A stretch of 64,000 nucleotides of DNA from assembly GCA_964462425.1 (NCBI GenBank), contig CAYWYD010000004.1:12173-76172 (forward strand), read 5' to 3'. Within the stretch, counting starts at the first letter, position 1. Every line of letters starts with the position of its first letter. The notes under the pieces are model-generated. The model was given only the letters and a program-made list of their open reading frames with translations. It searched no databases and was not told where the DNA came from. Positions 36,029 to 52,358 of the stretch are shown here, in pieces. A program made the translations under genes and the position numbers. Source of the DNA: an uncultured Thermoplasmata archaeon (GTDB lineage Archaea; Thermoplasmatota; Thermoplasmata; Halarchaeoplasmatales; Halarchaeoplasmataceae).

Positions 36029-36556
36029 TCACACTGAAAAGTCTTCCCAAGCATCGACGAAATTTTCCACTACATCTTCAGGGGGACTATATTCTAAAAG
36101 TAAGTGCGATATATGTTGTTTATCCACGACCTCATATGAACGTCCATCCTTCTTTAATACATCTTTTTTTTCGAGTTTTTTAAGATGATAAGAAAGAGTC
36201 GAAGCGGGTAGGTCCAACTCATCACTTATCTCCTTATGTCTTGCTTCTCCTCCGTTATTTAACAGGTATAGTACTATACCTAAAGGTTTCTCCTTCCTTA
36301 ACAAGCCTAACAGCCTCTTCTCCCTAGGGTTCAGTCGCTCACCTCTAGGATATTCATTCGGGTAATATCTCTTATAGCCTTCTTCCTCGAGCTTATTTAC
36401 AGCTTTCATCTCCTCGAGCTTTTGAAGATGATATTTGACTAGATTTAGATCCCTCTCCGTTTTTCTTCCTATCGCTTTCATGTTGAGGCCGGGATATTTT
36501 TTGATGACCTTAAAAATCTCTTTTCTAGTCTCCAGCTCCAGCTCAGGTTCTCCCAT
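36029..36556 (-). CDS. transcriptional regulator with two tandem winged-helix HTH domains
   Basis: Two repeats of an HTH pattern (IFKVIKKYPGLNMKAIGRKTERDLNLVKYHLQKLEE...; LGIVLYLLNNGGEARHKEISDELDLPASTLSYHLKKLEKKDVL). Last gene of the minus-strand surface-protein array. Confidence 0.65.
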   Translation of the reverse strand: MGEPELELETRKEIFKVIKKYPGLNMKAIGRKTERDLNLVKYHLQKLEEMKAVNKLEEEGYKRYYPNEYPRGERLNPREKRLLGLLRKEKPLGIVLYLLNNGGEARHKEISDELDLPASTLSYHLKKLEKKDVLKKDGRSYEVVDKQHISHLLLEYSPPEDVVENFVDAWEDFSV

Positions 36557-36560
36557 GTAT

Positions 36561-36839
36561 CTACCTCTTGAGAGAAGTCAGATAGAACAGGCTAAGGATT
36601 ATATTATCGAGCACCAATACGGGAAGCCAGAAGGAAAAATCTACCTCGATGGGATTTATATAGGAATTATAGGAAAGCCAAACACCCTTGATGAAGAATG
36701 ATAAAAAAGCAAACATTATGAAAAGAAATTTACTGTTTCTGGTTCTCCTGTATCCGATGATGGCTATGATCGTTAAAGCTAATGAAAGAACAGTCATTAT
36801 CCCTAAAACCGCATTGTAAGCTATTTCGACATTTGTCAT
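36561..36839 (-). CDS. small membrane protein (92 aa, 3 TM)
   Basis: Hydrophobic helices. Start codon 4 bp after the stop of... correction: its stop is 4 bp upstream of the regulator start codon, on the same strand. Confidence 0.45.
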   Translation of the reverse strand: MTNVEIAYNAVLGIMTVLSLALTIIAIIGYRRTRNSKFLFIMFAFLSFFIKGVWLSYNSYINPIEVDFSFWLPVLVLDNIILSLFYLTSLKR

Positions 36840-36878: not shown

Positions 36879-38810
36879 TTATTTTCCTTTCTTGGTGATC
36901 CAAACGGTAGCTAGTACAACCAGCGCCACTATGAAGACCACCGGTAGATAGTACTGAGGCTTTACCAGCGATCCTATCCCCGTCTCAGCCCTAGAGACCT
37001 CTATGCTGTGTGTCGAAAAGTGTGGGACCATCACTAAGACCTCTATTTTCTCCGAACCGATGCTTACCAGGTACTCCGCGTCGTCGGATGAATCTGTAAG
37101 ATCTTTATAATCATCGGCCATGTCGATCTCTTCTTCATCAAATGTCACTTCTATTTCTTCAGCCTTTTCAGCGTCTAGCGCGTCTTTGTAGATCCTTAGA
37201 GCTACGACCTTTCCTTCTTCTCCAAGCGTGTCAGATGATACTGTCACTCGTACTCTTTCGTTTTGCTGGGCCTGTGTCATGATCTGCATGTCGGCATAGC
37301 TCACCGATGTCTCTGAGATTCTATCTCCGTCTCTGTCCACTATGACTTCTCCTCCTACTTTACCTTGAGAGATGCCATCTGAGATGTTCTTGTCCATCTC
37401 CCGTTCCCTTTCGCGCTCTCTTTCACGTTCTCTTTCTTCTCCTTCAAACCCTGTCATCCTGAACACTAGGAAGAGGTCATCTTCGAAGGTGTAGTTGACA
37501 ACCCCATCACCAATATCGATATCTAAAGATTTGTTCCATGGCTCCTCTCCTTCGGAGACCGAAAGTAGCTTAGCTGTGCGATTGCCATGAGACAAGATCA
37601 AATTAGGCCCTTCTTGTTCAACCACCTCTAGATCACCTAGGTCGAAGCTCACTTTACGGGGAGTATCTTTTCTGTTCTCTGTTTCTATGTCGAGGAGTTC
37701 ACCGGTATAGCCATCGATCTTCAACCCGTATATCTTTTCGTCTCCTACGATCTCTATTTCATAAGAGGGATAAGCTTCATCGCCTTCTACTTCGAGTTCT
37801 AGACTCTCAAGAGTACCGTTAGCTATCCCATATGCGACCTCGAGTGCCTCCTCATGACCTATCAATTGATCCCATTCTGGCGTCACGTCCTCATCCTCAT
37901 CGTAATCATTCATTTCGGATCCAAGGACCTCACCAGTATACGCATCGACTGCTATTTGATGTACCTTTTCATCTTCTACGATCTCCATATGGTAGAGGTA
38001 TCTATCTTCGTCTTCTTCAAGCTCGAAATCGGTCAAGGTTCCATTGACATTTTCAAACGCGATATCCAGCGCTTCTTCTCTGCCTATCAGTTGATCCCAT
38101 TCCGGCGTTAAATCGCTCTCGTAGTCTGATCTAGCATCGATCTTCATCAGGGCGGGCGCCACGTCATATATCTTGATCCCTGTATCCTCGCCCTCGATCT
38201 CATAGATAGCTCCGTCGGTTTCGTTCTCCTCGATGACCATATCTGGAATTATCACATTCTCGAAAAGGAAGAACTCGGTATTATTCATCTGCAGCGTGTA
38301 ATTGGCTATCCCGTTTTCTAGCAATTCAAAGGAAGTAAAAGTGCCTTCGGTTCTATTCCAGGAACCAACGCCTCCTTCGTCATCATCCTCATCGTCGTCC
38401 TCTTCACCTTCTTCACCTTCCTCACCTTCTTCATCGCCGTCTTCGTCGTCCTCTTCGCCTTCATCGTCGTCTTCCTCATCCTCATCATCGCCGTCGTTCT
38501 CTCCATCGTCTTCCTCGCCTTCGCTATCATCTTCATCACTTTCACTGTCATTACCTTCATCGGTTTCTTCACTTTCGCTGTCTTCCCCTTCCTCTTCATC
38601 GCCATCGTCGGTTTCATTGTCATCGTGTTCTCCTTCTTCATCCTCGCCGGCACTGTCGTCACCACTATCATCACTTTCGTCGGCATCATCCCTGGCCATT
38701 GAAGGTCCTAGTTGACTATCTCCTCTAAAAGCTATACTCAATCCCGATGTCACCAGGAAAATCGCCATTAACCCTACTAACGCTATCGTTACCAATCTTT
38801 TCGTTCTCAT
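36879..38810 (-). CDS. secreted membrane-anchored protein with two PepSY-like repeats, a poly-D/E tract of about 125 aa and an (ER)n repeat
   Basis: Signal anchor MRTKRLVTIALVGLMAIFLV. Acidic tract DDADESDDSGDD...EDDDEDDDEGG. Two repeats TPEWDQLIG.EEAL..A..........L...ELE.E.....Y..EI.......H.I..D.YTGE.L, which match the PepSY pattern. EREREREREREREM. C-terminal TM YYLPVVFIVALVVLATVWITKKGK. Confidence 0.7.
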   Translation of the reverse strand: MRTKRLVTIALVGLMAIFLVTSGLSIAFRGDSQLGPSMARDDADESDDSGDDSAGEDEEGEHDDNETDDGDEEEGEDSESEETDEGNDSESDEDDSEGEEDDGENDGDDEDEEDDDEGEEDDEDGDEEGEEGEEGEEDDDEDDDEGGVGSWNRTEGTFTSFELLENGIANYTLQMNNTEFFLFENVIIPDMVIEENETDGAIYEIEGEDTGIKIYDVAPALMKIDARSDYESDLTPEWDQLIGREEALDIAFENVNGTLTDFELEEDEDRYLYHMEIVEDEKVHQIAVDAYTGEVLGSEMNDYDEDEDVTPEWDQLIGHEEALEVAYGIANGTLESLELEVEGDEAYPSYEIEIVGDEKIYGLKIDGYTGELLDIETENRKDTPRKVSFDLGDLEVVEQEGPNLILSHGNRTAKLLSVSEGEEPWNKSLDIDIGDGVVNYTFEDDLFLVFRMTGFEGEEREREREREREREMDKNISDGISQGKVGGEVIVDRDGDRISETSVSYADMQIMTQAQQNERVRVTVSSDTLGEEGKVVALRIYKDALDAEKAEEIEVTFDEEEIDMADDYKDLTDSSDDAEYLVSIGSEKIEVLVMVPHFSTHSIEVSRAETGIGSLVKPQYYLPVVFIVALVVLATVWITKKGK

Positions 38811-38968: not shown

Positions 38969-39319
38969 TCAGATATTCATATCGAAGCCTTTAGGATAAA
39001 AGATCGAGAGTACGAACAGCGCCACTAAACCTAAACCTCCAGCCCAGCTCAGCAGTAACACAACCGAAGGAAAGGTGACGATCGTGAAAACCATGTAAAG
39101 AAGGTATATTATCAGCAGTATCGTACCCACTGTTAGGAAAAGGTAGGCGGACTCTTTTTTACCAGTGTCCCAGTCCGAAACGCCGGAGGGATATCTCAAG
39201 CCTATATATCCAAGGAGGACAAAGGTCAATATGAACAAAGACCAGAAGGGATTCGTACCTAGTGAGAGTAGAACGATGAATACGATGACCGATAAAAAGA
39301 TCAGCACGCGATCTCTCAT
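38969..39319 (-). CDS. small polytopic membrane protein (116 aa, 4 TM)
   Basis: Hydrophobic helices throughout. Its start codon directly abuts the stop of the AAA gene upstream. Confidence 0.5.
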   Translation of the reverse strand: MRDRVLIFLSVIVFIVLLSLGTNPFWSLFILTFVLLGYIGLRYPSGVSDWDTGKKESAYLFLTVGTILLIIYLLYMVFTIVTFPSVVLLLSWAGGLGLVALFVLSIFYPKGFDMNI

Positions 39320-42300
39320 CTATTTACTCTCCTCCTTGGACTCCTCAAAACTCTCCACCGACTCCAACATATCTTCGGAGAGCGAAGGCGAAGTCTCCTC
39401 TATGACTTCTTCCAACATCTCCTGACTTATCTTGGCTTTCTTCTTTTTGGATTTACTTACGGCCTTGATCTTCGCTTCTTCAACGCAGCTCTTGATATCA
39501 CTGGACGTGAAACCTTCGGTCATCTCCGCAAGTTTTCCATAGTCCAAATCAGCTTCCGTTGGCACGGTATCGAGTTCGTTGATGAACAGCTCGCTCCTTC
39601 TTTCAAAGTCCGGCGGCGGGACGTGGATCGTCTTTTCGAATCTTCCTCTCTGGAAGAGTGCATCCTTGATCTTGTCAGGGTAGTGACTGGTCGCTATCAA
39701 ACCTATGTCCTCTTCCTCTTCTAGATCGTCAATCAAGTTGAGTAGAGCGGCTAGAGCCTTCGGAGCCGACATCCCTGAGATCTCTACACCGGCTATTTTC
39801 TCTAGTTCAGTTATCACTATGACTGAAGGTGCGATATCTCTCATATCCTTGAACAGTTTTTTTATCGTCCCTCTACCTTCCTCGGACACACCCTCTTTGA
39901 ACTCTCTCCCAGAGATCACTCTCATCGATATTCCTACTTTGTTGCCCGACGCTTTTATCAAGCTCAGTTTTTGACATCCTCTAGGACCATAGAGCAGCAG
40001 ATTTTTCGTCCCCGAGATGTCGAATTCTTCGATCAATTTGGACTCCGTCAGCGGTAAGAGGAATTCGTCTTTGATCGCACGCTTCGCCTCAGATAAATCC
40101 GGGATCTGGTCCAAAGTGACTCCTCGTTCCATCTCAGGTCTCTTGACCTCGTGCATCTTTCTCTCGTACTTGGACCTGACCTTCTGGTACTCCTCTCTCA
40201 TTGAAGGCGTGATGCTTGGACTCATCTGTTTCAGAACTTCGTTTATATCGTCTTCAGTGATGTGCTCGACTCCTCCACTGTCTAGAGATTTTCTCATGGC
40301 GAAGGTCGCGCTCTCCTTTGCCAGGTTGGCCAGATCCGCTCCAGAGAACCCTTCAGTCTTACGGGCCACCTTATCGAAGTCAACACTAGATGAGATCGGT
40401 TTATCCCTGAGATGTATGTTCAAGATCTCTTTTCTCTCCTCTTTATCCGGAGGTGGCACGTAGATTATCTTATCGAACCTTCCCGGCCTTAACAGCGCGG
40501 GATCGACCATATCCGGCTTGTTGGTGGATCCGACCATGATGATACCTTCGGCTCTATCCATCCCGTCTAATTCCGATAAAAGTAAGGAGAGAAGCCTCGG
40601 CGTGACGTCGTCCGCTGAATACATATCTCTTTTCTTCGCTATCGCGTCTATCTCGTCGAAGAATATGATACACGGCTTCCTTTCTCGGGCCGCTTTGAAC
40701 AGCTTCATCATGCTTTCCTCGCTCTCTCCGTACCACCGGGACATCACGTCGCCGCACTTCACGTTGATCATCTCGACATCTAGTTCAGTAGCTAAAGCTT
40801 TCATCAATAGAGTTTTACCACATCCGGGAGGTCCATAGAGAAGGACGCCTTTAGACGTCTCTACACCGAATTTTTCTGATATCTCCGGCCGCAATAGTGG
40901 CATTAATATACTTTCTTTAACATCCTGTTTCACGTCCTCTAATCCTCCAACACTCTCGAAGGGCGTTTCACCTAAATCTACCATCTCAGCTACCCGAGTA
41001 CCTACGTCGGAAACGCCTAACTGTCCTCTATAGTACTCTTTGAAAAGGCTCTTGGTCATGTGGCCTAATCCCTGGCTCAGATAAGCTAATGCGATGCCAC
41101 CTGCTAGGAACCCGGCGGCGAGTCCTATATCAAGACCGCTTATCCCGGATAAATAATCGAAGTAGATCAATCCTATAAGCGGAGAAGCCCCAAGGAGGAG
41201 AGAACTACTGACAGCGATCTTCCAATTTTTCTTCGAAGGATACTTCAACCATTCACTTATCTTATCATATTTCGGTCCTTTGGTCTCAACCATCCTCGAT
41301 ATCAGATAAAGTGCGATACACCACAGCAGTATCTGGAAGAACGGAAGTATCGAAGCTCCGAAATTGTTGGATAAAACCGTTTCGATTATACCCGCGTTAG
41401 CTCCGCTTATGCTGCCGAGCGCACTCCCTAGCGAACTAGGTCGGAAAGATGAAACGATAGGTTTATCGAACCGCATAAAAGCGCTCTCGTGAGGGTACGA
41501 AGTGACGAGTCCGATGAGCTCAAGATTGCCGCTCGACGAAGTCATCACCAAAAATGTTCCCGCTACCGCCGTCGAGATGATAGCTAGGAAAGAACTGAAC
41601 AGTATGACCGACATCACCGGAACCAGGAAAACCGCTCCGAATCTCGCCAAAAACAAGATAGAGAATACGAGAAATCCGAACCTCCAGTCAAAGAAGGAAG
41701 CCAGTAAAATAAGGAGAGAAAATACCAAAAAGACTAGACCAAATTCCGGTGATTGATACGCCGCAGCGCCTGTAACGAGAAGGCTGAGTATCAGAAGGGC
41801 GTTGAAGGGGAACTTGTAAGCGATAGCGCCGATCACTACGGATAGGACCAATATCATCCACCATGGGTAGAAGGGTGCAAAAATCAACCCCACCAAAGAA
41901 AGGAGGAAAAAGCCCGCAGGTACCAAGAATTCAGGTTCCCGGGTCTCTTCCATGATCTTATCCCAGAGATCGTCCATCATCGGATAAGAACTGCCTCTAT
42001 CTCTTCCTTCTCCCTCTTTAAGATCCACTCTTTTTGCCTGCTTCTTCTTGTAAACCCATCCTAGACAAAGGATCGGAACGATTATAGCAGCTACAAGGCC
42101 GCCCAGTACGGGAATCTGTGGAAATGAGATCATCCCGTGTTTCAAGGTCTCTTCGGGTTCCATATCGAACTGGAATATCCCTTCATCTTCGGTTTCCTCT
42201 CCGGTCAATTGTATGTTTCTCGAACTAGTTTCTCCTTCGTACTCCACGATTACCAGATAGTTCCCGGCGGAGAGCGGTTCATCGACGGTGACCTGCCCTT

Positions 42301-43225
42301 CTTCCGTAGTACCTTCAAACAAAACCTCCCCATCACTGGTTTCAACACGGACCACTGCACCGTCTATGTATCTGTCGTTCAGATCGTCATAAGCAACTAT
42401 AACGGGTTGGATAAGCTGTTCTCCAGCCTGGACCGTGTATGTTTCGTTTTCGGACGTGATAGCGTTATCATAGATATCATATGCTTCAACATAAAAAGTC
42501 ACAGTGGTGTTCTCGGGATAGGCGGGGATAGTAGCTACCCATTCCCCGTTATCTTCTTCGAACACTTCTGTAGCGTCCTGAGGTTCGCGCTCGGGCTGAT
42601 CGATCGTAGCCCAAATCCGAGCTGAATCTATCTCGACTTCCTGTTCCTCAGCCTCCTGTGTCTTGACGAGAGTTATATTAACCTGCTGGTCCGAGGTCGG
42701 GTTCATGGGCTCATAACTGAAATCTAGATTGTCTTCGAATTGATCCGAGATCCAGGCGCCTTTTTCGCTGACCGTGTAAGTAAAATTCTCTGAACGATAC
42801 CAGTCTATCTCATCCAAAGTCGCGTTGACCCAGAACCTGACTTCCGTGTTAGGCGTATGATATTCCGGCTCGATAACAGCGTTCATTAAAGTTCCATTTT
42901 CCCCTGCTTCCATAAGGTACCCACCGATTTCGGAGAAATTCTCTTCTCCTTCCTCTCTATACTGAAACCTGAGGTGGGCTTGCGAGATATTTTCATCCTC
43001 TATGCTTTCCACGGTAACCTCGACACCGTGATCTGGGTCCGGTTGTTGGGGCGTATACTCTAGTTCGAATAGATCATCGAATTCCTGCTCTTGATAATTC
43101 AGTCCTGGGTCATCTCCTTCTACGAATCCCAGTAAAGCTCCTGAAAAGACTCCAAGCAGGAGCAAACCGACCAACAAACATACGACCAATTTATTTCCAT
43201 CTAATTCTATATCCATATATATCAA
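39320..43225 (-). CDS. large polytopic membrane protein with extracytoplasmic N-terminal domain and C-terminal CDC48-like double AAA+ ATPase (active D1, degenerate D2)
   Basis: Signal anchor (LVVCLLVGLLLLGVFSGALLGFV). Acidic N-terminal ectodomain of about 330 aa with a prealbumin-like beta region. About 8 TM helices between aa 360 and 720. D1 has Walker A LLYGPPGCGKTLL, Walker B CIIFFDEIDAI, and SRH GSTNKPDMVDPALLRPGRFD. D2 reads LLLYGPRGCQKLSL (Lys followed by Leu rather than Ser/Thr) with GRFEKTIHVPPP. Confidence 0.8.
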   Translation of the reverse strand: MIYMDIELDGNKLVVCLLVGLLLLGVFSGALLGFVEGDDPGLNYQEQEFDDLFELEYTPQQPDPDHGVEVTVESIEDENISQAHLRFQYREEGEENFSEIGGYLMEAGENGTLMNAVIEPEYHTPNTEVRFWVNATLDEIDWYRSENFTYTVSEKGAWISDQFEDNLDFSYEPMNPTSDQQVNITLVKTQEAEEQEVEIDSARIWATIDQPEREPQDATEVFEEDNGEWVATIPAYPENTTVTFYVEAYDIYDNAITSENETYTVQAGEQLIQPVIVAYDDLNDRYIDGAVVRVETSDGEVLFEGTTEEGQVTVDEPLSAGNYLVIVEYEGETSSRNIQLTGEETEDEGIFQFDMEPEETLKHGMISFPQIPVLGGLVAAIIVPILCLGWVYKKKQAKRVDLKEGEGRDRGSSYPMMDDLWDKIMEETREPEFLVPAGFFLLSLVGLIFAPFYPWWMILVLSVVIGAIAYKFPFNALLILSLLVTGAAAYQSPEFGLVFLVFSLLILLASFFDWRFGFLVFSILFLARFGAVFLVPVMSVILFSSFLAIISTAVAGTFLVMTSSSGNLELIGLVTSYPHESAFMRFDKPIVSSFRPSSLGSALGSISGANAGIIETVLSNNFGASILPFFQILLWCIALYLISRMVETKGPKYDKISEWLKYPSKKNWKIAVSSSLLLGASPLIGLIYFDYLSGISGLDIGLAAGFLAGGIALAYLSQGLGHMTKSLFKEYYRGQLGVSDVGTRVAEMVDLGETPFESVGGLEDVKQDVKESILMPLLRPEISEKFGVETSKGVLLYGPPGCGKTLLMKALATELDVEMINVKCGDVMSRWYGESEESMMKLFKAARERKPCIIFFDEIDAIAKKRDMYSADDVTPRLLSLLLSELDGMDRAEGIIMVGSTNKPDMVDPALLRPGRFDKIIYVPPPDKEERKEILNIHLRDKPISSSVDFDKVARKTEGFSGADLANLAKESATFAMRKSLDSGGVEHITEDDINEVLKQMSPSITPSMREEYQKVRSKYERKMHEVKRPEMERGVTLDQIPDLSEAKRAIKDEFLLPLTESKLIEEFDISGTKNLLLYGPRGCQKLSLIKASGNKVGISMRVISGREFKEGVSEEGRGTIKKLFKDMRDIAPSVIVITELEKIAGVEISGMSAPKALAALLNLIDDLEEEEDIGLIATSHYPDKIKDALFQRGRFEKTIHVPPPDFERRSELFINELDTVPTEADLDYGKLAEMTEGFTSSDIKSCVEEAKIKAVSKSKKKKAKISQEMLEEVIEETSPSLSEDMLESVESFEESKEESK

Positions 43226-44625
43226 CTCTCGTTCAAGGTGTAACCTAAACTACTCTCTTCTTTCTTCTCATCATCTTCTTTAGATTTCTTTCCGGCTCTC
43301 ATGCCTACTCCTTCTTTTTCTTCCACACTGACTTGGTCTTTTAAAGCTTCACCCAATCCAAGACCCACGAAAGGAGCGAAAATGGCCTGATAACCCGCGG
43401 TTTGAGCCACTGGCTGTAAAGACGCCTGCGGTAGCACTGAGGCCGTACCTACAGGGGGTGAAGGCATGGGAAAGATCTCGGGTGGCGGAGGGGGTGGTGC
43501 CGCCGCCGGTGGTGGAGGCGGAGGGGGTGGTGGAGCCGTTGTTTGTATAATCCCGTATATCGAGTGATCCGGGAGCGGGGTAAAATTGTTCTGTCCGTCC
43601 CAAGGCCTGACGTAATACAGGCCGGCCTGCTCGGTGAAGACGGAGTGGTGACCCCTTTTAGTAGTGCTGATATTGAAACTCACTTCCCAACTATCGCCCA
43701 ATCTCATGGTATCGTTAAGATCCCATTCCACCACTGTTTTAGCATCCGTAGATATATTATCAGGGGTTTTAGAAAAGTAAGAAGTATTCAACTGGATATG
43801 GTCTTTGAATTCAGTTCTGACCTCTATATTTTCTCCGGTCAGGTCGGTATAAAATTGATCTGAAATGTTCAGGTACGTATCTACCAATTGATCCGGGTCT
43901 TCGACATAATGATATTCCCCTCCAGTTTTACTAGCCATCCAATTGAGGAGATCGTCGTTCACATCATCTCCCATCCCTATGGTGAACATGGTGACGTTAT
44001 TATCAATGACGCGGTTCATGGTTTCTCGGGTCACGTTATAAGTTGGATTCCCATCCGAGAGGAATATCTCCAATTGCTGTTTCTCTGGATCACCGTATTC
44101 TATCAACTCGTCGGTAGCTTTATCGATGGATTCTTCATAATTTGTCCGACCGCCAGGTTCCTGCCCCATCTCGAGACTTTCTTTCACGCTTTCATAATCT
44201 TGAGATAGAGGATGCTCTAAGGTGGCGTTCGTCGCTAACTTTATCACGCCGGCTCTATCCGGTGGTACCATGTTTTCAACGTAGGCTTGAGTGGCTTCTA
44301 TCCTCTCATGATTGGGATCCCAGATGGCGGATCTCTGCGAAAAATCAACTACCAGCATTGTATCCTGTGGATCAAACTTCAGAGCTTTCTGACCTGTGGC
44401 CTTGAAGCTGAGATTAATCTGAACTTCATCCGGCTCTTCGTTCTCCTGAAGAGGCCATACTCTATCGCTGCTTCCCTCGACCGTTATATCGAAATATGGA
44501 TTAGGATCGTAGGAGTCTTCAAAAGACTTCTCAGCCTGAACATTCGCCGAGTTAAGCAGACAAACGGCTAAGAAGATGACCGAAATCCAGAGGGTGACTT
44601 TATTTCTCCTAAACATCGAGTGCAT
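43222..44625 (-). CDS. secreted von Willebrand factor A (vWA) domain protein with polyproline linker
   Basis: Signal peptide VTLWISVIFLAVCLLNSANVQA. vWA-like motifs LVVDFSQRS, GGRTN, FLSDGNPT and MFTIGMGDDVNDDLLNWMASKTGGEYHYV. PPPPPPPPPAAAPPPPPP tract. Overlaps the downstream AAA gene by 4 bp. Confidence 0.75.
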   Translation of the reverse strand: MHSMFRRNKVTLWISVIFLAVCLLNSANVQAEKSFEDSYDPNPYFDITVEGSSDRVWPLQENEEPDEVQINLSFKATGQKALKFDPQDTMLVVDFSQRSAIWDPNHERIEATQAYVENMVPPDRAGVIKLATNATLEHPLSQDYESVKESLEMGQEPGGRTNYEESIDKATDELIEYGDPEKQQLEIFLSDGNPTYNVTRETMNRVIDNNVTMFTIGMGDDVNDDLLNWMASKTGGEYHYVEDPDQLVDTYLNISDQFYTDLTGENIEVRTEFKDHIQLNTSYFSKTPDNISTDAKTVVEWDLNDTMRLGDSWEVSFNISTTKRGHHSVFTEQAGLYYVRPWDGQNNFTPLPDHSIYGIIQTTAPPPPPPPPPAAAPPPPPPEIFPMPSPPVGTASVLPQASLQPVAQTAGYQAIFAPFVGLGLGEALKDQVSVEEKEGVGMRAGKKSKEDDEKKEESSLGYTLNES

Positions 44626-44631
44626 TGCACC

Positions 44632-47600
44632 TCATTCCTTGTCAGAAGGTAAATCCGCTTCCATCACGGAATCCATCAAACCCTTTTCTTCCCCTCCATC
44701 CCCTCCTTTTCCACCTTTCTCTGATTTCAAGGATAAGCCCATCTCCTTCAATTTTTCTTCTAGATGTTCAGCTCTTTTCTCCCCGATTCCTTTTATATTC
44801 TTCAACTCGTCCTTCGTCTTATTGGTGAGTTCCTCCACCGAGGTTATCTCTTGATTCTTCAATCTAGCTTCGACTCTGCCGTTCAAATTCAGCACTTCTA
44901 TCGAATGCCCTTGATCTTCTTTTTCCTCCACTGTTTCCTGTTTTCCTGTTTCCTTTTCCACTTGCTCTTCTTGCTTTTCTTTCTCTTTTCTTTTGGTTTT
45001 TTTCATAGGCCTAGCTTTCTTTTTCTTGACCTTTCTTTCACTCGGGGAGGCCCCACGGCTTTCTCCTTTCTCTTCTTCTTTTGAGCTGAGGGGAGAGGAT
45101 ATCCAACCGGATTCTTTTTCTTCTTCTTCCTCTTTTTCTCCTTCTTCTCCCTCCTTTTCCTCTCTTTTTATCCTCTCTCGAACTTCGTTTCTTCCGAGAT
45201 AAAGGATGAAAACGATCAGTATCAATATCAGGAGGAAACTTATCCCCGGTATATTGTTCTGGAATATTCCCCAATAGTCTGGAGGATTGTCCACTTCAAC
45301 GGTACCCGAATACTGATTGACGTTTCCCGCGCTGTCTTCGATCCTGATTACATAGGTATGTTCTCCGTCATCTTCCTCGGCAGCTTCCCACTGGTACATG
45401 TATGTATTATTTTTGACCAGCATCATGTCTTGCCATCCTCTCCCGTCTATGTTGATCTGTACATTTTCAACACCGGCTAAACTGGACACGTTCAACGAGA
45501 AAGTAGTAGAGCCCTGCACGCTGGTCTCGTTCAAGATGTTCTCTACAGGGCCGGTCATCTCTATCATCGGTCCTGCGTTATCCACGGTTATCTCAAATTG
45601 GCTGCCCCTTTCGTGCCCTGCGACGTCTACAACAGTTACATTCACGTCGAAGACTCCTCTACCATCTTCACCAGTAAGTTTGGTAGATTGTAAAAGATAA
45701 CTGTACTTGTTTTCTTCGGCAGTCTTTTCCATCGGGAACGGCCCGATATTTCCTTCGAACTCAATCATCACTTCCTGTACTTCGGAATCGACGAAGACTT
45801 TGATCTCGTGCTCTCCACTGATCACCTCTTCCCTTCTTGGGCTATGGAGTCGTATGGTAGGAGCTACATTATCCACTATAACTGTCACTTTTCTCGTCGT
45901 GATGTGTCCGGCTTCGTCGGTTGCTCTTACCGTTATGGTGTGTTCTCCATCGCTCAACCTTGTAGTGTTGAGTTCCTCAGAAATAGGTACAAATCCCGTA
46001 TCATCCACTGAGTACATGACACCCTTCATGAATTCATCCTCGGAAGTGACGTTGAGTTCCACCGTATCCCTGATGTACTCGCCATTTCTAGGAGAGTTGA
46101 TATCCAGCTCTGGTGCGTTGTTGTCAACGTGGAAACTTATAGTGTTAGTTCTGTGCATATTCCCTATAGGGTCTGTGGCAGTAGCATTAAATGTGTAAGT
46201 TCCGTCTGCGAGGTTCCTCGTATCTATCTCGTAAACATAATATCCGCTCTCTCTATCGAAGGAGAGTTCAAGAGTCTCATTGAATAGATGAGCTTCTACA
46301 CTCTCCACTTCTACTTCGTGTCTTGCGTTCACTCTAAATTGGAACCAGTCCTCCACGAATTGTTCCTCTATAGGACTGACTATAGAGGCCTCAGGTTCAG
46401 TATTGATAACCGTCACTCTTATCGTTCGCACTACGCTGTTGCCGGCTTGGTCCGTTGCCATGATATCTAAACTGTGCTCACCGTCGGAATAACCCGTGGT
46501 ATTCCATGGGACGATGATCGGGGTCCATCCTCCGTCGTCCACGCTGTAATAAGCCGGTCCCGGGAAAGCATCTTCAACTTCGGCATCTACTTCGACCTGA
46601 CCGGAAACGTATTCCCCGTGCCTCGGAGAATTTATAGTGAGCGAAGGATCGTGATTGACGACTCGGAACTCTATGGTCTCAGTGATATTCATCTTTCCCG
46701 ATAGATCGGTAGCGGATGCGGTCACGTTCCAATAACCGTCTTCCTGTTCCAGCGTCGTATCGAGTGTAGCTTCATGATATCCCGTACTGGGGTTGTAAGT
46801 CGCTTCTATCGTCCAATTCCCCGTATGGGGTTCGTCACTTACCAGAGCATAGATGTCGAGCACAACTGTCTCTATCCCGACCTTGTCGGCGGCACGTATT
46901 TGGAAAGTCAGATCTCCTTCGATGAATTGATCGGAAACCGGGTTCAATATCTCTACTTTGGGCTCGTGGTTATCGACGGTGACCTCGATCTCGTTTAGAG
47001 TCACATGCCCCACGTCGTCTCTAGCCCTTATCGCGATCGTGTGTTCGCCGTCCACTATCGTCGTGGTGTCCCACTCTGCTATCCACCCTCTCCCTAATTC
47101 GTATATGTTCAGCTCTTCCTCACTTAATTCTATACGGTATTCTCTCTTCCCATCTTCGGAAACAAACCATTTCCCGTCCTCCTCAGAAAGATTCGCATCC
47201 TCTTCAACCTCGTAACCTTTGTCTTCGAAGGCTTGCCGTAATGTCTCATTTATAACTCCTTCTTCCAAGCACTCCTCATATTCTGTTCTATTCAGGCTGA
47301 ACGAATACTCGTCTCTTTCTCTTTCCATCGAACTCCAAGTTCGCTCGTTTATCCTATACTCCACTTCGGGTATGAAGGGGTCGTCATCTATTTCGGCCGT
47401 GATATTCACCGTTCCTGAGACAAAGTCACCCTGTAAAGGTTCAAGATATTCGACCTCTGGAGGACTGTTGTCGATGAAGAAGTCTACCTCCCCAAGATCC
47501 GTCCGGAAACCAGCTTTGTCTATCACGGTAGCGTTAAATCGAGCTTCCCCATCAGTATATCGGAAGGTAGCGACCTCGAACATGTAAGAACCGGTAGTTA

Positions 47601-50600
47601 CGTCATAATACATCTCCTGCGTCTCCAATTCATCGATATCGGAGGCGTTTTCTCCTTCAACCTCTAAGAAGTTGATCATCACTCTTTCAACACCGACTTC
47701 ATCATCCGCATTGATTTGGAATCTAATCCTTTCATCGACGAAATCGCTTTCGGAAGGTGTTACGATCTCTCCCTCCGGTCCGGTGTTATCAAAGATCACT
47801 TCTACCGATTGCCTAGTTCTCAGACCACCACGGTCGATAGCTTCGAACTGGATTGTGTGTGCTCCGTCAGTGAAATTTGAGGTCTCTATTATAGACGTCC
47901 ATTCCTCATTCCCTTCCTCGTCCATAGCATGCCATCCACTATCGCCCACTCTGTATCTCACGCCAGAGAGGAATTTATCTTCAGCCCGAACTCTCACCTC
48001 GTCTTTTCCGGTCATAATCTTTCCCGCTTCAGGTCCTACTATAGAAAGTGTAGGTTCTTCGTTGTTGACATGGAAATTTATCGGATCTAATTCAATTTCC
48101 CATCCGGCATTATCCTTGATGGTAGCTGAAATGTTGTAAGTACCATCCTCTATAGTGGTGGTTACCAAGACAAGCTCGTACATCCCCGTTCCAGAATTAT
48201 ATTCAGCCGTATAGGTCTGATTGAACACATCAACCTTCACCTGGTCTATACCGTTTTCATCCTCTGCGGAGATCTGGAATATGAAACTACCACTTACGTA
48301 CTCTCCTCCAAAGGGCGAAGCTATCGAGCCGCCCGGTTTTTCATTATCAACGATTATATCGATAGAGTCCATCGTCTGGTGGCCTATCTCATCCACAGAG
48401 CGAACCTCGATCCGGTGGTGTCCTTCACTGAATTTGGTAGTGTTCCAATAGGCGGTTGAATAGTTCTCTTCTATATCCATCTCGTTCCAGCTACCCCCGT
48501 CTATCCTATAGTGGGAGTTCTTCAAAAATTTATCATGAGTGGTAGCGTTTATTTCTATTTCACGGTCGATATAATCACCCTGGTTGGGAGCTACGATATC
48601 TACCGCTGGATTCGTATTATCAACAGAGAAGTTGACCGCGTCTACCACCGTTTCCTTCCCGGAATCATCTTTTACCGTAGCTTCGATAGCGTGATCTCCA
48701 TCTTCCACAGTGGTGGTTATGATACTCTTTTCATAAAAGCCAGTACCTTGATTAAATCCTGCGGTATAATTCTCTCCGAAAACATTTATGCTTACAACAT
48801 CCACACCGTTCTCGTCATTAGCAGAGACCTGGAATGTATATGTACCCTGGATGTCTGCATCGGGATTGGGTGATATTATGGATGCGGTTGGATTTTCATT
48901 ATCCACGATCACGTTAATATTCTGCATGGTGCTCTTACCCGAGTCGTCCATAGCTCTCACGTGAATCTGGTGTTCTCCCTCGCTGTAATCGCTGGTATTC
49001 CATTCGTAGGTCCATAAATTGTTTGATTCTTCCATCGCCTCCCAGGTACCTTCATCTATCCGTGCTTCGGCGGAATCGAGATACATGTCAGTGATATTCG
49101 TCTCGACAGATACATTCCCGGAGACATACGAATTGGGAGTCGGATTCACAATAGATACTGCCGGTGCACTATTGTCCACGCTGAAGGTTACATCACTTGT
49201 GGTATATGTCCATCCCACTTCATCTTCTATAGTAGCGTTTACAGTATACTCTCCGTCGTCTATCGAATTGGTGTCGATGCTGTACTCATAATAACCTGTT
49301 CCTTCGTTGTAAGTCGCGGGATAGATCCCACTAAAGACTTTTATCTCGACACTTTTTACCCCCACCTCATCGCTCGCTGTTATACGGAACGTGTACTCTC
49401 CGCTGATGAACTCTCCATTTAGAGGTTCGACTACAGTTCCTGTCGGGGCGGTGTTGTCGACCTTTACATCTCTACTGACTTCAGTTTCATGTCCGACCTC
49501 GTCTACCGCCCTAAATGTCAAAGTGTGGGGTCCGTCGGGGACCGCGGTCGTGTCCCAGTCGGCTGTATAGTTGTCTAACGTTGTATTTTCTTCCATGGTC
49601 TCCCAAGCACCGTCATCAACTCTATATTCGACAGTTTCGAGGAAGTCGCTCTCTACTTCCGCCTTCAAGGTATGTGTATTTTGGAGTATCTGGCCCGCCT
49701 GTGGAGAATGGATGGTCATGGAGGGAGGTGCATTAGCAACTTGGAAATCGACAGACTGATTCTGGCTGCTGTGCCCAACTCTATCCCATCCCTGCATATG
49801 GGCCGTATAATTCCCGTCGGAGACAGTAGAGGTTCTAAACGTCCTTTCATAATATCCGGTTACTTCGTTAAATACCATCGATGTAGTCGATCCAAATACG
49901 GTTATATTCACTCTATCCATTTTGACGGTATCCTCCGCAAGAGCCTGGAATTTATACTGACCCTGGATCGTTTCTCCATTAACTGGTGAAACGATATCCA
50001 AACTGGGAGGATTATTATCTACGTAAACCGTAGTCGAAGACTGTCCAGACAGCCCGGCTTTATCGGTAGCCTCGATAGTAATATCATGTAATCCGTCGCT
50101 TACAGAGGTAGTATCCCATTGAGCGAGCCAGGATATTGAATTCCCCCCCTCATTATCGATGATCATAGGCTGCCAAGCCTGCTCATCTATTCTGTACTGA
50201 ACGTCGCTAATCTTCTCACTAGTATTGACCCTGATTTCGATCGCGTCATTCACATACTCGTGATCTGATGGAGAAAGTATCGTAGGGTTTGGAGGTGTGT
50301 TTTTAGTCTCAAAGGTCACTGGTTTAGAAGTGTAGCGAGCTCCATCCGTACCCACTACTGTAGCTTTGACCGTAGAGATACCATCAGGATATCCAGTGGT
50401 GTCTACATCTCTTTCCCACAATCCGGATGTAGTAGAATAAGCTCCAGATAAAGTACCGAGTGTTGATAGGTTCCCCCCGAAAGTAAACCTTACTTCATCG
50501 ATAGTTCCCCCATCATATGAAGCATCGGCTTGGAAAGTATATTGGCCCGAGATTAGTTCATCCTCTATAGGAGAGTACATCCCCGCGTTTAAACCCGTGG

Positions 50601-52152
50601 TGACTTCAAGTTCTACCGTAGTGTTATGCGTCTTTCCACCCCCTTCACCTTTGACGATCAACTCGTAGGTATCCGGTTGTAGGTCCGTAGAGGGATGAAC
50701 ATTCAAGGATGTTTCATTCGGATATGGGGAATTGAGAGTCGATGTTCCGAAATCCCAGGTCAGTTCACCGTTGGGTGAAGGAGAGACGCTATCTACCGAA
50801 AGATCGACTGGATCGTTGAAATTGTTTATCGCGCTCACATTCATCTCGTAACTGAAATCGGTTCCTACGCCCACTTTTTGATAGTCCGGTCTCCCGTCGA
50901 TATAGAAATTTTCTTGATCCTCGATGATCAGATCGACTTCCGAGGAATGATTCGATCCAGAATCTGCTGTGCTGTTAGCCCAAATCCTTAACGGATATTC
51001 TCCTGGGCTGGCATTGGTTGCTTCGATGAAAACTTTAGTTTCGTTGACAGTGTTTCCATCAGGATGTACCTTATTTTCGTCCAGATAGGCATTGACACCG
51101 GTCGGTGCCCCTCCCAACCATTGAAGATCTAGATCTATCGGATTAACCGCACCTTCGGCAGTAATCTCGACATCATATTCCGTATTTATCTCGGGACTTA
51201 TCAGACGAGTTTTAGGAGAAGCACTTATCCCGTGATCTCCTGAGAGAAGGATATCATATTCCTGGTGGTCAGGATTGTCTCTGTTGTGGTTCAAAACCAC
51301 GATCCCATACCACCCAGTTTGTTCTGGGGTGAAGTTGACTATCTCCTCTTCTACTCCATTCACCTCATCAACCACACCGCTAGCTAATGATTCCTGAGGG
51401 ATGGCGGAATGATTTCGGACTATATGGTAGCTCAAATGGTTATCTTCTGTAGCTTCTGTAGTGGGCAGACTTAGATCATATGTGCCTTCTTTGTATAAAA
51501 ATGAAGAGTAAACATTCAGAAGTGGAGGATGACCATCAGTATTATCTATTGATCCAAAGAAATTTCCATCCTTGGTACCATCATCCCTCTCACCGGCGAT
51601 CAACGCGCTAGTTCTCGTTTCTCCGATCTGTAGAGGCCCGGGAGAATCTGGGTTATCATCATACAGCTCCCCGGAATGCGAATCCGATTCGATCGCGTAA
51701 TTCATATGGTCATCTCCACTATAATTCTCTCCCTCAAATGGTAAAATTCTTGAAAAATAGGCCGTTTCAGATTCGGGATCGGGTTGTCTCACCACAACCG
51801 TATCCATTTTCCCCAAGCCTCTATAAGAGGAAACGACTTCTCTATCAAAATCATAATCTTCATACAGTTCAAGATCAAAATCGCCGGTTACATCCGTACT
51901 ATCTTCTGGCAATAGAGCAATTCCTGTATAATGCCCATTAGCATAGATCTTATCCCTGTTTGGAACCATTTCTTCACTGGGATCAAAAAAACCTCCCGAT
52001 GGCACTTGGATATATTGATTATCCGGTTCGTGGTTATTCAGCGTATAGGATTTCCCTCCAGTAAGAGCACTCGCTAGAGGAGTCAGGAGCATAATATTGA
52101 CTACAAGCAGGCCTACTATAACCAAAACAGCTATCCGCCTCGATGCTTTCAT
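44632..52152 (-). CDS. giant (about 2506 aa) type-I membrane surface protein built from roughly 18-20 tandem Ig-like repeats of about 100 aa, with cytoplasmic tail containing a helix-hairpin-helix motif
   Basis: Signal peptide MKASRRIAVLVIVGLLVVNIMLLTPLASA. The ORF track extends to a GTG at 52164; the ATG at 52150-52152 is preferred. Two alternating repeat types (VDN..P...I.SP..G..I.G.Y.F...A.D..GV..V...VFG..Y.A.YN.GTGYYE... and V.VDN..P...I..P......V.G.V.V...I.D..L....YR.D.G.W..M...........W.T.....G.H......A.D..G). TM ISFLLILILIVFILYLG. K/E-rich tail with LTNKTKDELKNIKGIGEKRAEHL. Confidence 0.8.
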   Translation of the reverse strand: MKASRRIAVLVIVGLLVVNIMLLTPLASALTGGKSYTLNNHEPDNQYIQVPSGGFFDPSEEMVPNRDKIYANGHYTGIALLPEDSTDVTGDFDLELYEDYDFDREVVSSYRGLGKMDTVVVRQPDPESETAYFSRILPFEGENYSGDDHMNYAIESDSHSGELYDDNPDSPGPLQIGETRTSALIAGERDDGTKDGNFFGSIDNTDGHPPLLNVYSSFLYKEGTYDLSLPTTEATEDNHLSYHIVRNHSAIPQESLASGVVDEVNGVEEEIVNFTPEQTGWYGIVVLNHNRDNPDHQEYDILLSGDHGISASPKTRLISPEINTEYDVEITAEGAVNPIDLDLQWLGGAPTGVNAYLDENKVHPDGNTVNETKVFIEATNASPGEYPLRIWANSTADSGSNHSSEVDLIIEDQENFYIDGRPDYQKVGVGTDFSYEMNVSAINNFNDPVDLSVDSVSPSPNGELTWDFGTSTLNSPYPNETSLNVHPSTDLQPDTYELIVKGEGGGKTHNTTVELEVTTGLNAGMYSPIEDELISGQYTFQADASYDGGTIDEVRFTFGGNLSTLGTLSGAYSTTSGLWERDVDTTGYPDGISTVKATVVGTDGARYTSKPVTFETKNTPPNPTILSPSDHEYVNDAIEIRVNTSEKISDVQYRIDEQAWQPMIIDNEGGNSISWLAQWDTTSVSDGLHDITIEATDKAGLSGQSSTTVYVDNNPPSLDIVSPVNGETIQGQYKFQALAEDTVKMDRVNITVFGSTTSMVFNEVTGYYERTFRTSTVSDGNYTAHMQGWDRVGHSSQNQSVDFQVANAPPSMTIHSPQAGQILQNTHTLKAEVESDFLETVEYRVDDGAWETMEENTTLDNYTADWDTTAVPDGPHTLTFRAVDEVGHETEVSRDVKVDNTAPTGTVVEPLNGEFISGEYTFRITASDEVGVKSVEIKVFSGIYPATYNEGTGYYEYSIDTNSIDDGEYTVNATIEDEVGWTYTTSDVTFSVDNSAPAVSIVNPTPNSYVSGNVSVETNITDMYLDSAEARIDEGTWEAMEESNNLWTYEWNTSDYSEGEHQIHVRAMDDSGKSTMQNINVIVDNENPTASIISPNPDADIQGTYTFQVSANDENGVDVVSINVFGENYTAGFNQGTGFYEKSIITTTVEDGDHAIEATVKDDSGKETVVDAVNFSVDNTNPAVDIVAPNQGDYIDREIEINATTHDKFLKNSHYRIDGGSWNEMDIEENYSTAYWNTTKFSEGHHRIEVRSVDEIGHQTMDSIDIIVDNEKPGGSIASPFGGEYVSGSFIFQISAEDENGIDQVKVDVFNQTYTAEYNSGTGMYELVLVTTTIEDGTYNISATIKDNAGWEIELDPINFHVNNEEPTLSIVGPEAGKIMTGKDEVRVRAEDKFLSGVRYRVGDSGWHAMDEEGNEEWTSIIETSNFTDGAHTIQFEAIDRGGLRTRQSVEVIFDNTGPEGEIVTPSESDFVDERIRFQINADDEVGVERVMINFLEVEGENASDIDELETQEMYYDVTTGSYMFEVATFRYTDGEARFNATVIDKAGFRTDLGEVDFFIDNSPPEVEYLEPLQGDFVSGTVNITAEIDDDPFIPEVEYRINERTWSSMERERDEYSFSLNRTEYEECLEEGVINETLRQAFEDKGYEVEEDANLSEEDGKWFVSEDGKREYRIELSEEELNIYELGRGWIAEWDTTTIVDGEHTIAIRARDDVGHVTLNEIEVTVDNHEPKVEILNPVSDQFIEGDLTFQIRAADKVGIETVVLDIYALVSDEPHTGNWTIEATYNPSTGYHEATLDTTLEQEDGYWNVTASATDLSGKMNITETIEFRVVNHDPSLTINSPRHGEYVSGQVEVDAEVEDAFPGPAYYSVDDGGWTPIIVPWNTTGYSDGEHSLDIMATDQAGNSVVRTIRVTVINTEPEASIVSPIEEQFVEDWFQFRVNARHEVEVESVEAHLFNETLELSFDRESGYYVYEIDTRNLADGTYTFNATATDPIGNMHRTNTISFHVDNNAPELDINSPRNGEYIRDTVELNVTSEDEFMKGVMYSVDDTGFVPISEELNTTRLSDGEHTITVRATDEAGHITTRKVTVIVDNVAPTIRLHSPRREEVISGEHEIKVFVDSEVQEVMIEFEGNIGPFPMEKTAEENKYSYLLQSTKLTGEDGRGVFDVNVTVVDVAGHERGSQFEITVDNAGPMIEMTGPVENILNETSVQGSTTFSLNVSSLAGVENVQINIDGRGWQDMMLVKNNTYMYQWEAAEEDDGEHTYVIRIEDSAGNVNQYSGTVEVDNPPDYWGIFQNNIPGISFLLILILIVFILYLGRNEVRERIKREEKEGEEGEKEEEEEKESGWISSPLSSKEEEKGESRGASPSERKVKKKKARPMKKTKRKEKEKQEEQVEKETGKQETVEEKEDQGHSIEVLNLNGRVEARLKNQEITSVEELTNKTKDELKNIKGIGEKRAEHLEEKLKEMGLSLKSEKGGKGGDGGEEKGLMDSVMEADLPSDKE

Positions 52153-52358
52153 AAAAAACACCACATTAATTCACTACAATATTCCCATGATTTAAGTTTT
52201 TCTTTAACAATTTTCGAATGTTGTATTCCGGAAAAATTTCGTTAAGTTGTTCGGAAAATACACATATCTCCGAATAAACAGTAGAACTCCTCGATATATT
52301 TGAGGAAAATAATCTGAGAAAAAATAATAAAAAAAAGAAAAGGATTTTTGACCTGTTT

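Follow-up and report, generated by a model that had tools for sequence, protein, structure and literature searches.

The DNA analysed here, referred to as the window, is a stretch of 64,000 nucleotides from an uncultured Thermoplasmata archaeon (GenBank assembly GCA_964462425.1, contig CAYWYD010000004.1, positions 12,173 to 76,172 of the forward strand), and all positions below are those of the window unless a locus is named. Its minus strand carries a cassette (38969-52164) in which a secreted protein with a von Willebrand factor A (vWA) domain is encoded directly ahead of a membrane protein with two AAA modules, and this cassette is best read as a dedicated cell-envelope complex of Thermoplasmatota. 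The explanation favoured here, tentatively and with slightly less than even confidence, is that the AAA protein is a protease-less membrane motor of FtsH-like topology, the first AAA module (D1) of which pulls the tail of the vWA partner, remodelling or dislocating a dedicated surface complex.

Gene order and junctions

The cassette and its genes are:

38969-52164, minus strand: whole cassette, in the order giant Ig-repeat protein, vWA partner, AAA protein, small membrane protein
44632-52164, minus strand: giant Ig-repeat surface protein, 2510 aa, first gene of the cassette (Pfam)
43222-44625, minus strand: partner, a "head-on-a-stalk" protein of 464/467 aa (Pfam VWA, 6.7e-12)
39320-43225, minus strand: AAA protein, 1301 aa, TTG start
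38969-39319, minus strand: small membrane protein, 116 aa, with about four predicted helices and the conserved loop motif YPxGxxDW

An earlier note on this DNA, made from the sequence alone, had described the AAA and vWA (467 aa) genes as translationally coupled, and both open reading frames (ORFs) were present in the ORF listing as tightly coupled genes. The 4-bp overlap given there (TTGA) hinges on the TTG start of the AAA ORF. It does not hold for the database copies: the one designated P0001 (1298 aa) uses an ATG 9 nt downstream of the TTG, with which a 5-nt spacer follows the vWA stop codon (junction ...GAG AGT TGA TAT AT ATG GAT...). The real junction is thus either a 4-nt overlap or a 5-nt spacer, and the coupling is tight either way; in relatives, the spacing between the two genes ranged from -19 to +53 nt. 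The 2510-aa ORF terminates 6 nt ahead of the vWA ATG, and the first base of the 116-aa membrane protein gene directly follows the AAA stop codon. Otherwise the window carries ordinary chromosomal genes (those of MutS, MutL, ADP-forming acetyl-CoA synthetase, and aldehyde dehydrogenase), and GC content is uniform throughout.

The AAA modules

The two modules and their motifs were located by Pfam and by alignment to VAT:

40136-40990, minus strand: AAA module D1, the motor
40811-40834, minus strand: D1 Walker A, GPPGCGKT
40718-40741, minus strand: D1 pore loop, SRWYGESE
40646-40669, minus strand: D1 Walker B, IIFFDEID
40472-40489, minus strand: D1 arginine fingers, RPGRFD
39323-40135, minus strand: AAA module D2, degenerate
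39965-39988, minus strand: D2 Walker A, GPRGCQKL (Gly to Gln, Thr to Leu)
39800-39823, minus strand: D2 Walker B, VIVITELE (Asp to Thr)

Pfam matched AAA twice (PF00004, 8e-63) and AAA_lid_3 twice, and N-terminal of residue ~745 gave only weak CarboxypepD_reg and CE2_N matches. AAA_5 was also matched, with 25.1 bits against a cut-off of 22 bits over a partial stretch (residues 793-863); AAA_3 was not among the Pfam matches listed for the protein. No CDC48_N or CDC48_2 match, and hence no N-terminal double-psi barrel, was found by Pfam. The NCBIfam models ranked CDC48 (458 bits), PAN (374 bits), and FtsH (324 bits). The CDC48 score (TIGR01243, 457.9 bits) is below the cut-off of 802.65, its best stretch being residues 748-1022 against CDC48 444-731 (the D2 module), and FtsH_fam (TIGR01241) reached 324 bits, short of its cut-off of 600, and aligned with the AAA part alone (D1). 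When aligned to the CDC48, VAT, and FtsH domains, both modules matched VAT: the best solved-structure match was Thermoplasma VAT (5vc7), with 269 bits for window D1 against VAT D2, and window D2 taken alone gave 108 bits against VAT D2. From these matches, the ATPase is assigned to the classic clade and to the VAT/CDC48 type in both modules.

As the earlier note had stated, D1 is intact in Walker A, Walker B (DEID), and arginine fingers; its sensor-1 residue is Asn, and an intact aromatic pore loop can be added to the list. The D1 motifs, the pore loop MS[RK]WYGE included, were invariant in every locus holding D1. The alteration noticed before in the Walker A motif of D2 is likewise real and extends to Walker B, to FKEG in the place where the aromatic pore loop is expected, and to a sensor-1 His, while RGRFE is kept. 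Across the family, D2 was canonical in the loci called type B below and degenerate in the window's clade; in three loci it has a gene of its own, about 12 lack it, and an aromatic pore loop in D2 was seen at no locus. D2 is therefore best read as a dispensable, non-threading ring that is catalytically degenerate in the window. The HbYX motif was absent from the C-terminus of the AAA protein (...EESKEESK) and from all family members, which rules out docking to the proteasome through this motif.

Topology and membrane domain

The N-terminal 745 residues comprise the following features:

42131-43216, minus strand: AAA N-terminus, with the ATG at 43216, the signal anchor TM0 (43121-43189), and the acidic ectodomain (aa 38-365)
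40991-42130, minus strand: polytopic membrane domain (aa 366-745), with transmembrane (TM) helix TM1, a cytoplasmic loop, and the conserved core
41858-41875, minus strand: membrane-domain motif PFYPWW
41738-41761, minus strand: membrane-domain motif AYQSPEFG
41675-41692, minus strand: membrane-domain motif FDWRFG

Hydropathy resolved an anchor at the N-terminus, an ectodomain of 330 aa, and a densely hydrophobic stretch (residues 366-717). The ectodomain consists of two related beta-sandwich units and one CarboxypepD_reg-like unit, and residues 38-365 hold 83 Asp/Glu vs 12 Lys/Arg (K/R). Past it, the AlphaFold model and the K/R distribution gave 9 spanning helices and one re-entrant hairpin; of the architecture proposed in the earlier note, the signal anchor, the acidic ectodomain of ~330 aa, and the two AAA modules stood, and the count of about 8 TM helices was close. 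The predicted order is TM0, ectodomain, TM1, a cytoplasmic loop (KKKQAKR...), TM2-TM5, the re-entrant hairpin between arginines, TM7, a 60-residue outer loop, TM8, a K-rich cytoplasmic loop, TM9, TM10, a linker of ~25 residues, and D1. The K/R-rich loops are on the AAA side of the membrane. N-X-S/T sequons numbered 8 in the 331 aa of the ectodomain, 10 in 331 aa of the vWA protein, and 47 in the 2256 aa of the giant protein's exterior, and none was present in the 558-aa AAA cassette or in the membrane domain. The asymmetry of sequons and charges, together with the helix map of the model, argues that the ectodomain is outside and that the AAA ring is membrane-proximal in the cytoplasm, as in FtsH, and the AAA cassette is predicted to be cytoplasmic. 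Neither hydropathy, the model, the sequons, nor the K/R distribution placed it outside, and no Peptidase_M41 match was found in the AAA protein with Pfam or NCBIfam, so the earlier description of a membrane-embedded AAA protein with FtsH-like topology and no protease domain was borne out.

The AlphaFold model of the membrane domain reached a pLDDT of 54 with 15 close homologues, and of 90.2 (pTM 0.90) with 38 diverse sequences, which were drawn from an exhaustive profile search of cluster representatives. Foldseek comparison of the model with the PDB gave no match (top row E 0.22, TM-score 0.2). As modelled, the domain may resemble the S component of energy-coupling factor (ECF) transporters in fold, which would be a resemblance and not proof of homology, and the fold appears to be new, with no solved or curated counterpart. 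In the 38-sequence alignment, only the Gln of AYQ was invariant, PFYP and two Trp were nearly so, and no Cys, Ser, His, Asp, or Glu was invariant. The lack of an invariant polar catalytic residue argues for a binding or scaffold role and against an enzyme, and an intramembrane enzyme or sortase was ruled out because such residues are not invariant across these sequences.

Conservation of the cassette

The word-index search with AAA residues 1-745 returned 17 proteins, all of the same architecture; all those with a source name were from Thermoplasmatota archaea, including 'Candidatus Natronoplasma'. The exhaustive membrane-domain profile search covered 1.84 billion cluster representatives (50% identity, about 15 billion predicted proteins) and found 44 relatives, and a scan of one genome per GTDB species yielded 54 loci, all in metagenome-assembled genomes of Thermoplasmatota. 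Hidden Markov models (HMMs) of each part were searched against six-frame ORFs of all loci.

Loci of the window's type (type A) have a vWA gene of the family directly upstream, in 28 species-level loci, so the vWA-AAA adjacency is conserved among Thermoplasmatota. Orthologues of the giant protein, matching in both the head and the C-terminal TM region, adjoin the cassette in 22 further loci, usually directly before the vWA gene. About 20 loci are of type B: the ectodomain and TM1 form a separate gene directly upstream of a TM-D1-D2 protein of ~890 aa, and the gene preceding that of the ectodomain encodes a secreted partner of ~435 aa, the head of which is an unknown domain in 18 loci. For this head, Pfam and NCBIfam gave no match and PDB sequences no meaningful one, even at E<=10. 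The giant protein is missing from type B loci. The gene of the 116-aa protein directly follows the AAA gene in essentially all loci with sequence there. Judged by gene content, type A is a conserved four-gene envelope cassette, and type B has a core of three to four genes. In L005 (13357-14487), L027 (3680-4786), and L035 (11831-12922), D2 is encoded by an overlapping gene of its own, and the ectodomain/TM1 break of type B falls in the cytoplasmic TM1-TM2 loop. These points of fission and fusion lie exactly at module borders, which supports the modular and topological model.

One type B subclade, several loci of which are labelled Methanomassiliicoccales, has a divergent membrane protein like the Sec11/archaeal-type signal peptidase (ESGSM motif, TIGR02228 E about 1e-3, SEC11A E 0.09) encoded two genes upstream of the AAA gene:

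L036 3595-4599 and L051 6423-7544: signal-peptidase-like gene, with orthologues in L037, L043, and L046-L049

This added gene and the conserved, tightly coupled order of giant, partner, AAA, and small protein would fit a biogenesis or assembly factor, by which the AAA protein holds, unfolds, or inserts the giant protein and the partner during export, once per molecule, in a Bcs1-like or secretion-ATPase-like manner; both candidate clients are large, secreted, and single-pass. Such a role is nevertheless rather improbable. Each client carries a Sec-type signal peptide and a stop-transfer anchor of the ordinary kind, which leaves no need for a special exporter, one of the two clients (the giant protein) does not occur at type B loci, and classic AAA rings pull toward themselves, here into the cytoplasm, which also counts against it.

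The stalked partner

The following parts of the partner were delimited:

44533-44616, minus strand: Sec-type signal peptide
about 43879-44361, minus strand: vWA domain, followed by a beta-rich domain
44329-44346, minus strand: sequence DFSQRS, resembling a metal-ion-dependent adhesion site (MIDAS)
43480-43536, minus strand: polyproline stalk APPPPPPPPPAAAPPPPPP, aa 364-382
43342-43395, minus strand: conserved Gly-rich anchor GYQAIFAPFVGLGLGEAL
43225-43341, minus strand: 39-aa charged tail, ending in LGYTLNES

The vWA domain, the polyproline run, and the secreted nature of the protein had been noticed before, and the Pfam match and signal peptide agree with this. The vWA family alignment showed that the Asp, first Ser, Thr, and Asp of the MIDAS are all kept, the second Ser being shifted by one position in the window's subclade (DFSQRS vs DxSxS). 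The nearest solved relatives included BatA/BatB-like proteins (4rck, 1.4e-23; 3ibs; 4jdu), a Sulfolobus VWA2 domain, and vWA domains from matrix or receptor proteins outside the cell (ITIH, collagen VI, anthrax toxin receptor), which fits a head that binds a ligand extracellularly. A head outside the cell cannot contact the cytoplasmic AAA ring, and any link between them would thus run only through the membrane anchor and the tail.

With the type B partner, the vWA partner has only its C-terminus in common, namely the polyproline run, the anchor [VI]P[AV][EQ]Y[LM][FL]AG[FL]xGLGxx[DE]R, and a charged tail of 20-45 residues. The anchor alignment was made from 45 distinct C-termini, taken from 32 vWA-headed and 18 other-headed partner ORFs of the loci. 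In each of 52 loci the HMM of the anchor matched a single gene, which in every case precedes that of the ectodomain/TM-AAA protein, and it gave one match in the 64-kb window. The head is swapped in 18 loci and the C-terminus is kept, so the conserved feature of the partner is the stalk, anchor, and tail, and not the vWA head. By this distribution, the partner is paired one-to-one with the AAA protein, and its C-terminal module is borne by two unrelated heads. Within the loci sequence, a general C-terminal sorting signal of the archaeosortase, exosortase, or rhombosortase type was ruled out, as the anchor occurs once per locus.

Distant relatives of the membrane domain

Beyond the Thermoplasmatota, the membrane domain was found in other fusions, at E 1e-4 to 1e-11 and with the core motifs in common. 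It is joined to two canonical AAA modules in Korarchaeota/Thermoproteota and Micrarchaeota and to a RAD55/KaiC-like ATPase in Nezhaarchaeales; other distant fusions are to a coiled coil with a winged helix-turn-helix (wHTH) domain (P0062, P0064, P0065, P0070) and to adenylate cyclase (P0069). Fusions to KaiC/RAD55-like ATPases include P0060 and P0067. The Korarchaeota TM-AAA-AAA gene stands alone, without partner genes. One protein with TM and two AAA modules (P0072, 1080 aa) has an intein-like insertion of ~190 aa directly after the D1 pore loop, ending in ...FAHNS. The Nezhaarchaeales fusion gene (L062, 5203-7674) adjoins a second KaiC-like gene, with a CdvA/Vps4 cell-division cluster a few kb away.

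The occurrence of the same membrane domain on the output domains of other archaea (cyclase, coiled coil with wHTH, KaiC/RAD55-like) bears on the strongest rival explanation, a sensor-coupled ATPase. According to this, the membrane domain, ectodomain, and vWA head would form a ligand-binding receptor, the occupancy of which gates the AAA ring. The ring would then remodel a target in the cytoplasm, perhaps a regulator or the helix-hairpin-helix (HhH) tail of the giant protein, and the system would be a signal transducer, not a dislocase. The possibly S-component-like fold, the position of the conserved motifs PFYPWW and AYQxPEFG at the outer face of the membrane, and the HTH_HVO_0163-type regulators near the cassette in the window, L006, and L031 are also in its favour. 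We consider the sensor unlikely, however, as the distant fusions match only at the E-values given above and the strictly conserved anchor and tail of the partner would be left unexplained. The invariant, intact threading pore loop of D1 weakens it further, since it points to polypeptide translocation and not to mere switching.

Another explanation, general quality control of membrane proteins, would make the AAA protein a dislocase standing in for FtsH or endoplasmic reticulum-associated degradation (ERAD) in archaea, with the neighbouring surface genes as clients or hitch-hikers. To our knowledge archaea have no FtsH, which counts for this explanation, as do the VAT/CDC48-like motor and the partnerless TM-AAA-AAA genes of Korarchaeota, Thermoproteota, and Micrarchaeota. 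It is very unlikely all the same: the partner, ectodomain, and small protein keep a fixed order across about 50 Thermoplasmatota species, the family has no HbYX motif for docking to the 20S proteasome, and with so few relatives among the cluster representatives it occurs in a small minority of archaeal genomes.

Proposed mechanism

For the favoured reading, a protease-less motor that pulls on its partner, the core would be a membrane-integral AAA+ unfoldase of the VAT/CDC48 type, presumably hexameric, with the membrane-proximal D1 ring as the motor, the Ig-like ectodomain outside, and the small four-helix protein as a co-worker. The rigid polyproline stalk of the partner would carry the secreted head, a vWA domain in the window. 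Its anchor may dock on the membrane domain or the small protein, and its tail would enter the D1 pore from the membrane side, as the substrates of FtsH or Msp1 do. ATP hydrolysis by D1 would then tug the tail, and the force would pass through the anchor and stalk to the extracellular head, whose MIDAS face may bind an external ligand or the operon's own giant Ig-repeat protein. This could lead to retraction or remodelling of the surface assembly or, equally, to its dislocation and turnover. In FtsH, Msp1/ATAD1, and chloroplast Ycf2-FtsHi, a classic AAA ring anchored in the membrane grips an unstructured tail and thereby draws a protein out of the bilayer or across it, and pulling on the tail by D1, in direction as in purpose, is proposed by analogy with them.

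Several points weigh against this reading. The contacts between tail and pore and between anchor and membrane domain are ones that we infer. A one-to-one "substrate" is unusual for an unfoldase, and the partner may be a static subunit. The KaiC/RAD55-like, coiled-coil-wHTH, and cyclase fusions fit a sensor module equally well as substrate docking, and the partnerless Korarchaeota genes suggest that the ancestral role may be general. The apolar core of the anchor is also short (13-20 residues).

It is further conceivable, though quite unlikely, that the complex is an ATP-powered transmembrane winch, in which the cytoplasmic VAT-like ring reels in the tail of a stalked vWA adhesin through the new membrane domain, giving integrin-like adhesion with inside-out control. 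If so, an unfoldase would convert ATP hydrolysis into mechanical force or retraction outside a wall-less archaeon, and in other archaea this membrane module would couple, as a general device, to other cytoplasmic engines.

How archaea extract proteins from membranes, or exert force across them, is largely unknown, and the cassette bears on this gap. The family puts a VAT/CDC48-type threading ring directly beneath the membrane, with its likely client or handle encoded adjacently in about 50 species. It bears on the evolutionary background of CDC48-driven (ERAD-type) membrane extraction in the archaeal ancestors of eukaryotes and on the surface biology of uncultured Thermoplasmatota, a group abundant in sediments and hypersaline systems, and it defines a new archaeal membrane domain that is fused elsewhere to KaiC-like, cyclase, and HTH outputs.

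Giant protein, subtilase, and neighbouring genes

The giant protein has a signal peptide, a head of ~520 aa with no Pfam match, Big_7 (ten copies) and Big_13 repeats, and a C-terminal TM helix (45193-45243); its sequons are divided into 47 outside the membrane and 1 in the tail. Its long charged cytoplasmic tail holds an RpoA-CTD/HhH match (44743-44940, aa 2409-2474; Pfam 4e-8, NCBIfam rpoA about 1e-10), which puts a DNA-binding-type module on the inner side of a surface protein. A neighbour protein in L001 (1051 aa) combines a Zn-ribbon, HHH_5, and a coiled coil.

Upstream of the cassette, two further genes were found, neither of which is conserved beside it elsewhere:

52359-60797, minus strand: subtilase, 2812 aa, with Peptidase_S8, eight Flg_new_2 (InlB B-repeat-like), CARDB, a C-terminal TM helix, and an acidic tail
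60814-63936, minus strand: giant secreted protein, at least 1040 aa, with Flg_new_2

The earlier note had proposed that giant subtilases, secreted and encoded just upstream, act in trans as the proteases of an FtsH-like AAA protein that extracts or translocates substrates, which the vWA MIDAS captures outside, in analogy with vWA-MoxR pairs. The FtsH-like topology without a protease domain, the secreted 2812-aa Peptidase_S8 protein two genes upstream, and the conserved vWA adjacency speak for this scheme, which is nonetheless highly improbable. The adjacent giant gene encodes the Ig-repeat protein and not a protease, and Peptidase_S8 appears only in the next gene upstream. The neighbourhoods of the other 60 loci contained no S8 relative of the window's subtilase, and the subtilase was ruled out as partner protease because the gene is unique to the window. 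The MoxR analogy fails, as the AAA partner is a classic-clade (PF00004) ATPase and the vWA domain is extracellular. Outward translocation coupled to capture by the MIDAS found no specific support: the conserved part of the partner is not the vWA head, which is replaced in 18 loci, the MIDAS of the window is imperfect, and we know of no classic AAA protein that pushes its substrate outward.

On the other side of the cassette, the neighbouring features are:

36879-38810, minus strand: secreted, hyper-acidic protein carrying two PepSY domains, a long low-complexity region of D/E, the run (ER)6, and a TM anchor at the C-terminus
38302-38715, antisense: long Ser-rich phantom ORFs, which the acidic stretch of the PepSY protein yields on the opposite strand
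36029-36556 and 36561-36839, minus strand: double wHTH regulator of the HTH_HVO_0163 type, together with a small DUF7471-like membrane protein

HTH_HVO_0163-type regulators were also found at L006 (277-1041) and L031 (6750-7739), the latter fused to Ig/CarboxypepD_reg-like domains. The HTH_HVO_0163-type protein may be a regulator of the cassette.

Comparison with known systems

The literature searched held no description of the AAA-vWA cassette family, and source annotations of its members read only 'AAA family ATPase' or 'vWA domain-containing protein'. The only named archaeal class of membrane-attached AAA proteins in that literature was the membrane-bound AAA (MBA) proteins of Sulfolobus, which are described as Sulfolobales-specific (Serek-Heuberger et al. 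2009, as cited in PMC3493965). By that description, to which the comparison is limited, they are alike in being an archaeal AAA class defined by membrane attachment; no member of the window's AAA family carries an MBA-type annotation.

VAT/CDC48/p97 (5vc7, 5g4f) has the same tandem of classic AAA modules with AAA_lid_3, and the W-Y-G pore loop and arginine fingers are as in CDC48 D2. The window protein differs in having a 745-aa ectodomain and membrane domain instead of the N domain, in that its first module threads and not the second, in a D2 that is degenerate, optional, or a separate gene, and in having no HbYX. With FtsH/Yme1 and Ycf2-FtsHi it has in common an extracytoplasmic domain, a membrane anchor, a short linker, and a classic AAA ring at the membrane, and FtsHi is a protease-less version working as a pure pulling motor. 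Unlike FtsH, the window protein is archaeal, has no M41 domain, not even a dead one, and has 10 spanning helices vs 2, tandem AAA modules, and stalked partners. Msp1/ATAD1 and Bcs1 are likewise membrane-tethered, protease-less classic AAA rings that move proteins out of or across the bilayer by terminal segments, but theirs is one N-terminal helix and one AAA module, with no ectodomain, polytopic domain, or operon partners.

The ECF S components (RibU, FolT, ThiT, BioY, PanT, BtuM, CbiM) had 8-13% identity to the window's membrane domain and no Foldseek match, and the latter differs in its extra helices, re-entrant hairpin, 60-residue outer loop, and covalent AAA motor; no EcfT or EcfA/A' genes were found in the cassette or in the loci of relatives. 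As in vWA-MoxR and BatA/BatB systems, the vWA gene neighbours an AAA+ gene in the same orientation, and the nearest solved vWA domains include BatA/BatB-like ones, but the window's ATPase is of PF00004 with two modules, and its vWA domain is extracellular on a polyproline stalk, with 10 sequons. The motor class and the concept of a membrane-anchored AAA protein are thus known already; what is new is the polytopic membrane fold, the tandem VAT-like cassette in a membrane setting, and the dedicated stalked partner, and there is a minority chance that together they make up a new type of transmembrane force-transducing machine.

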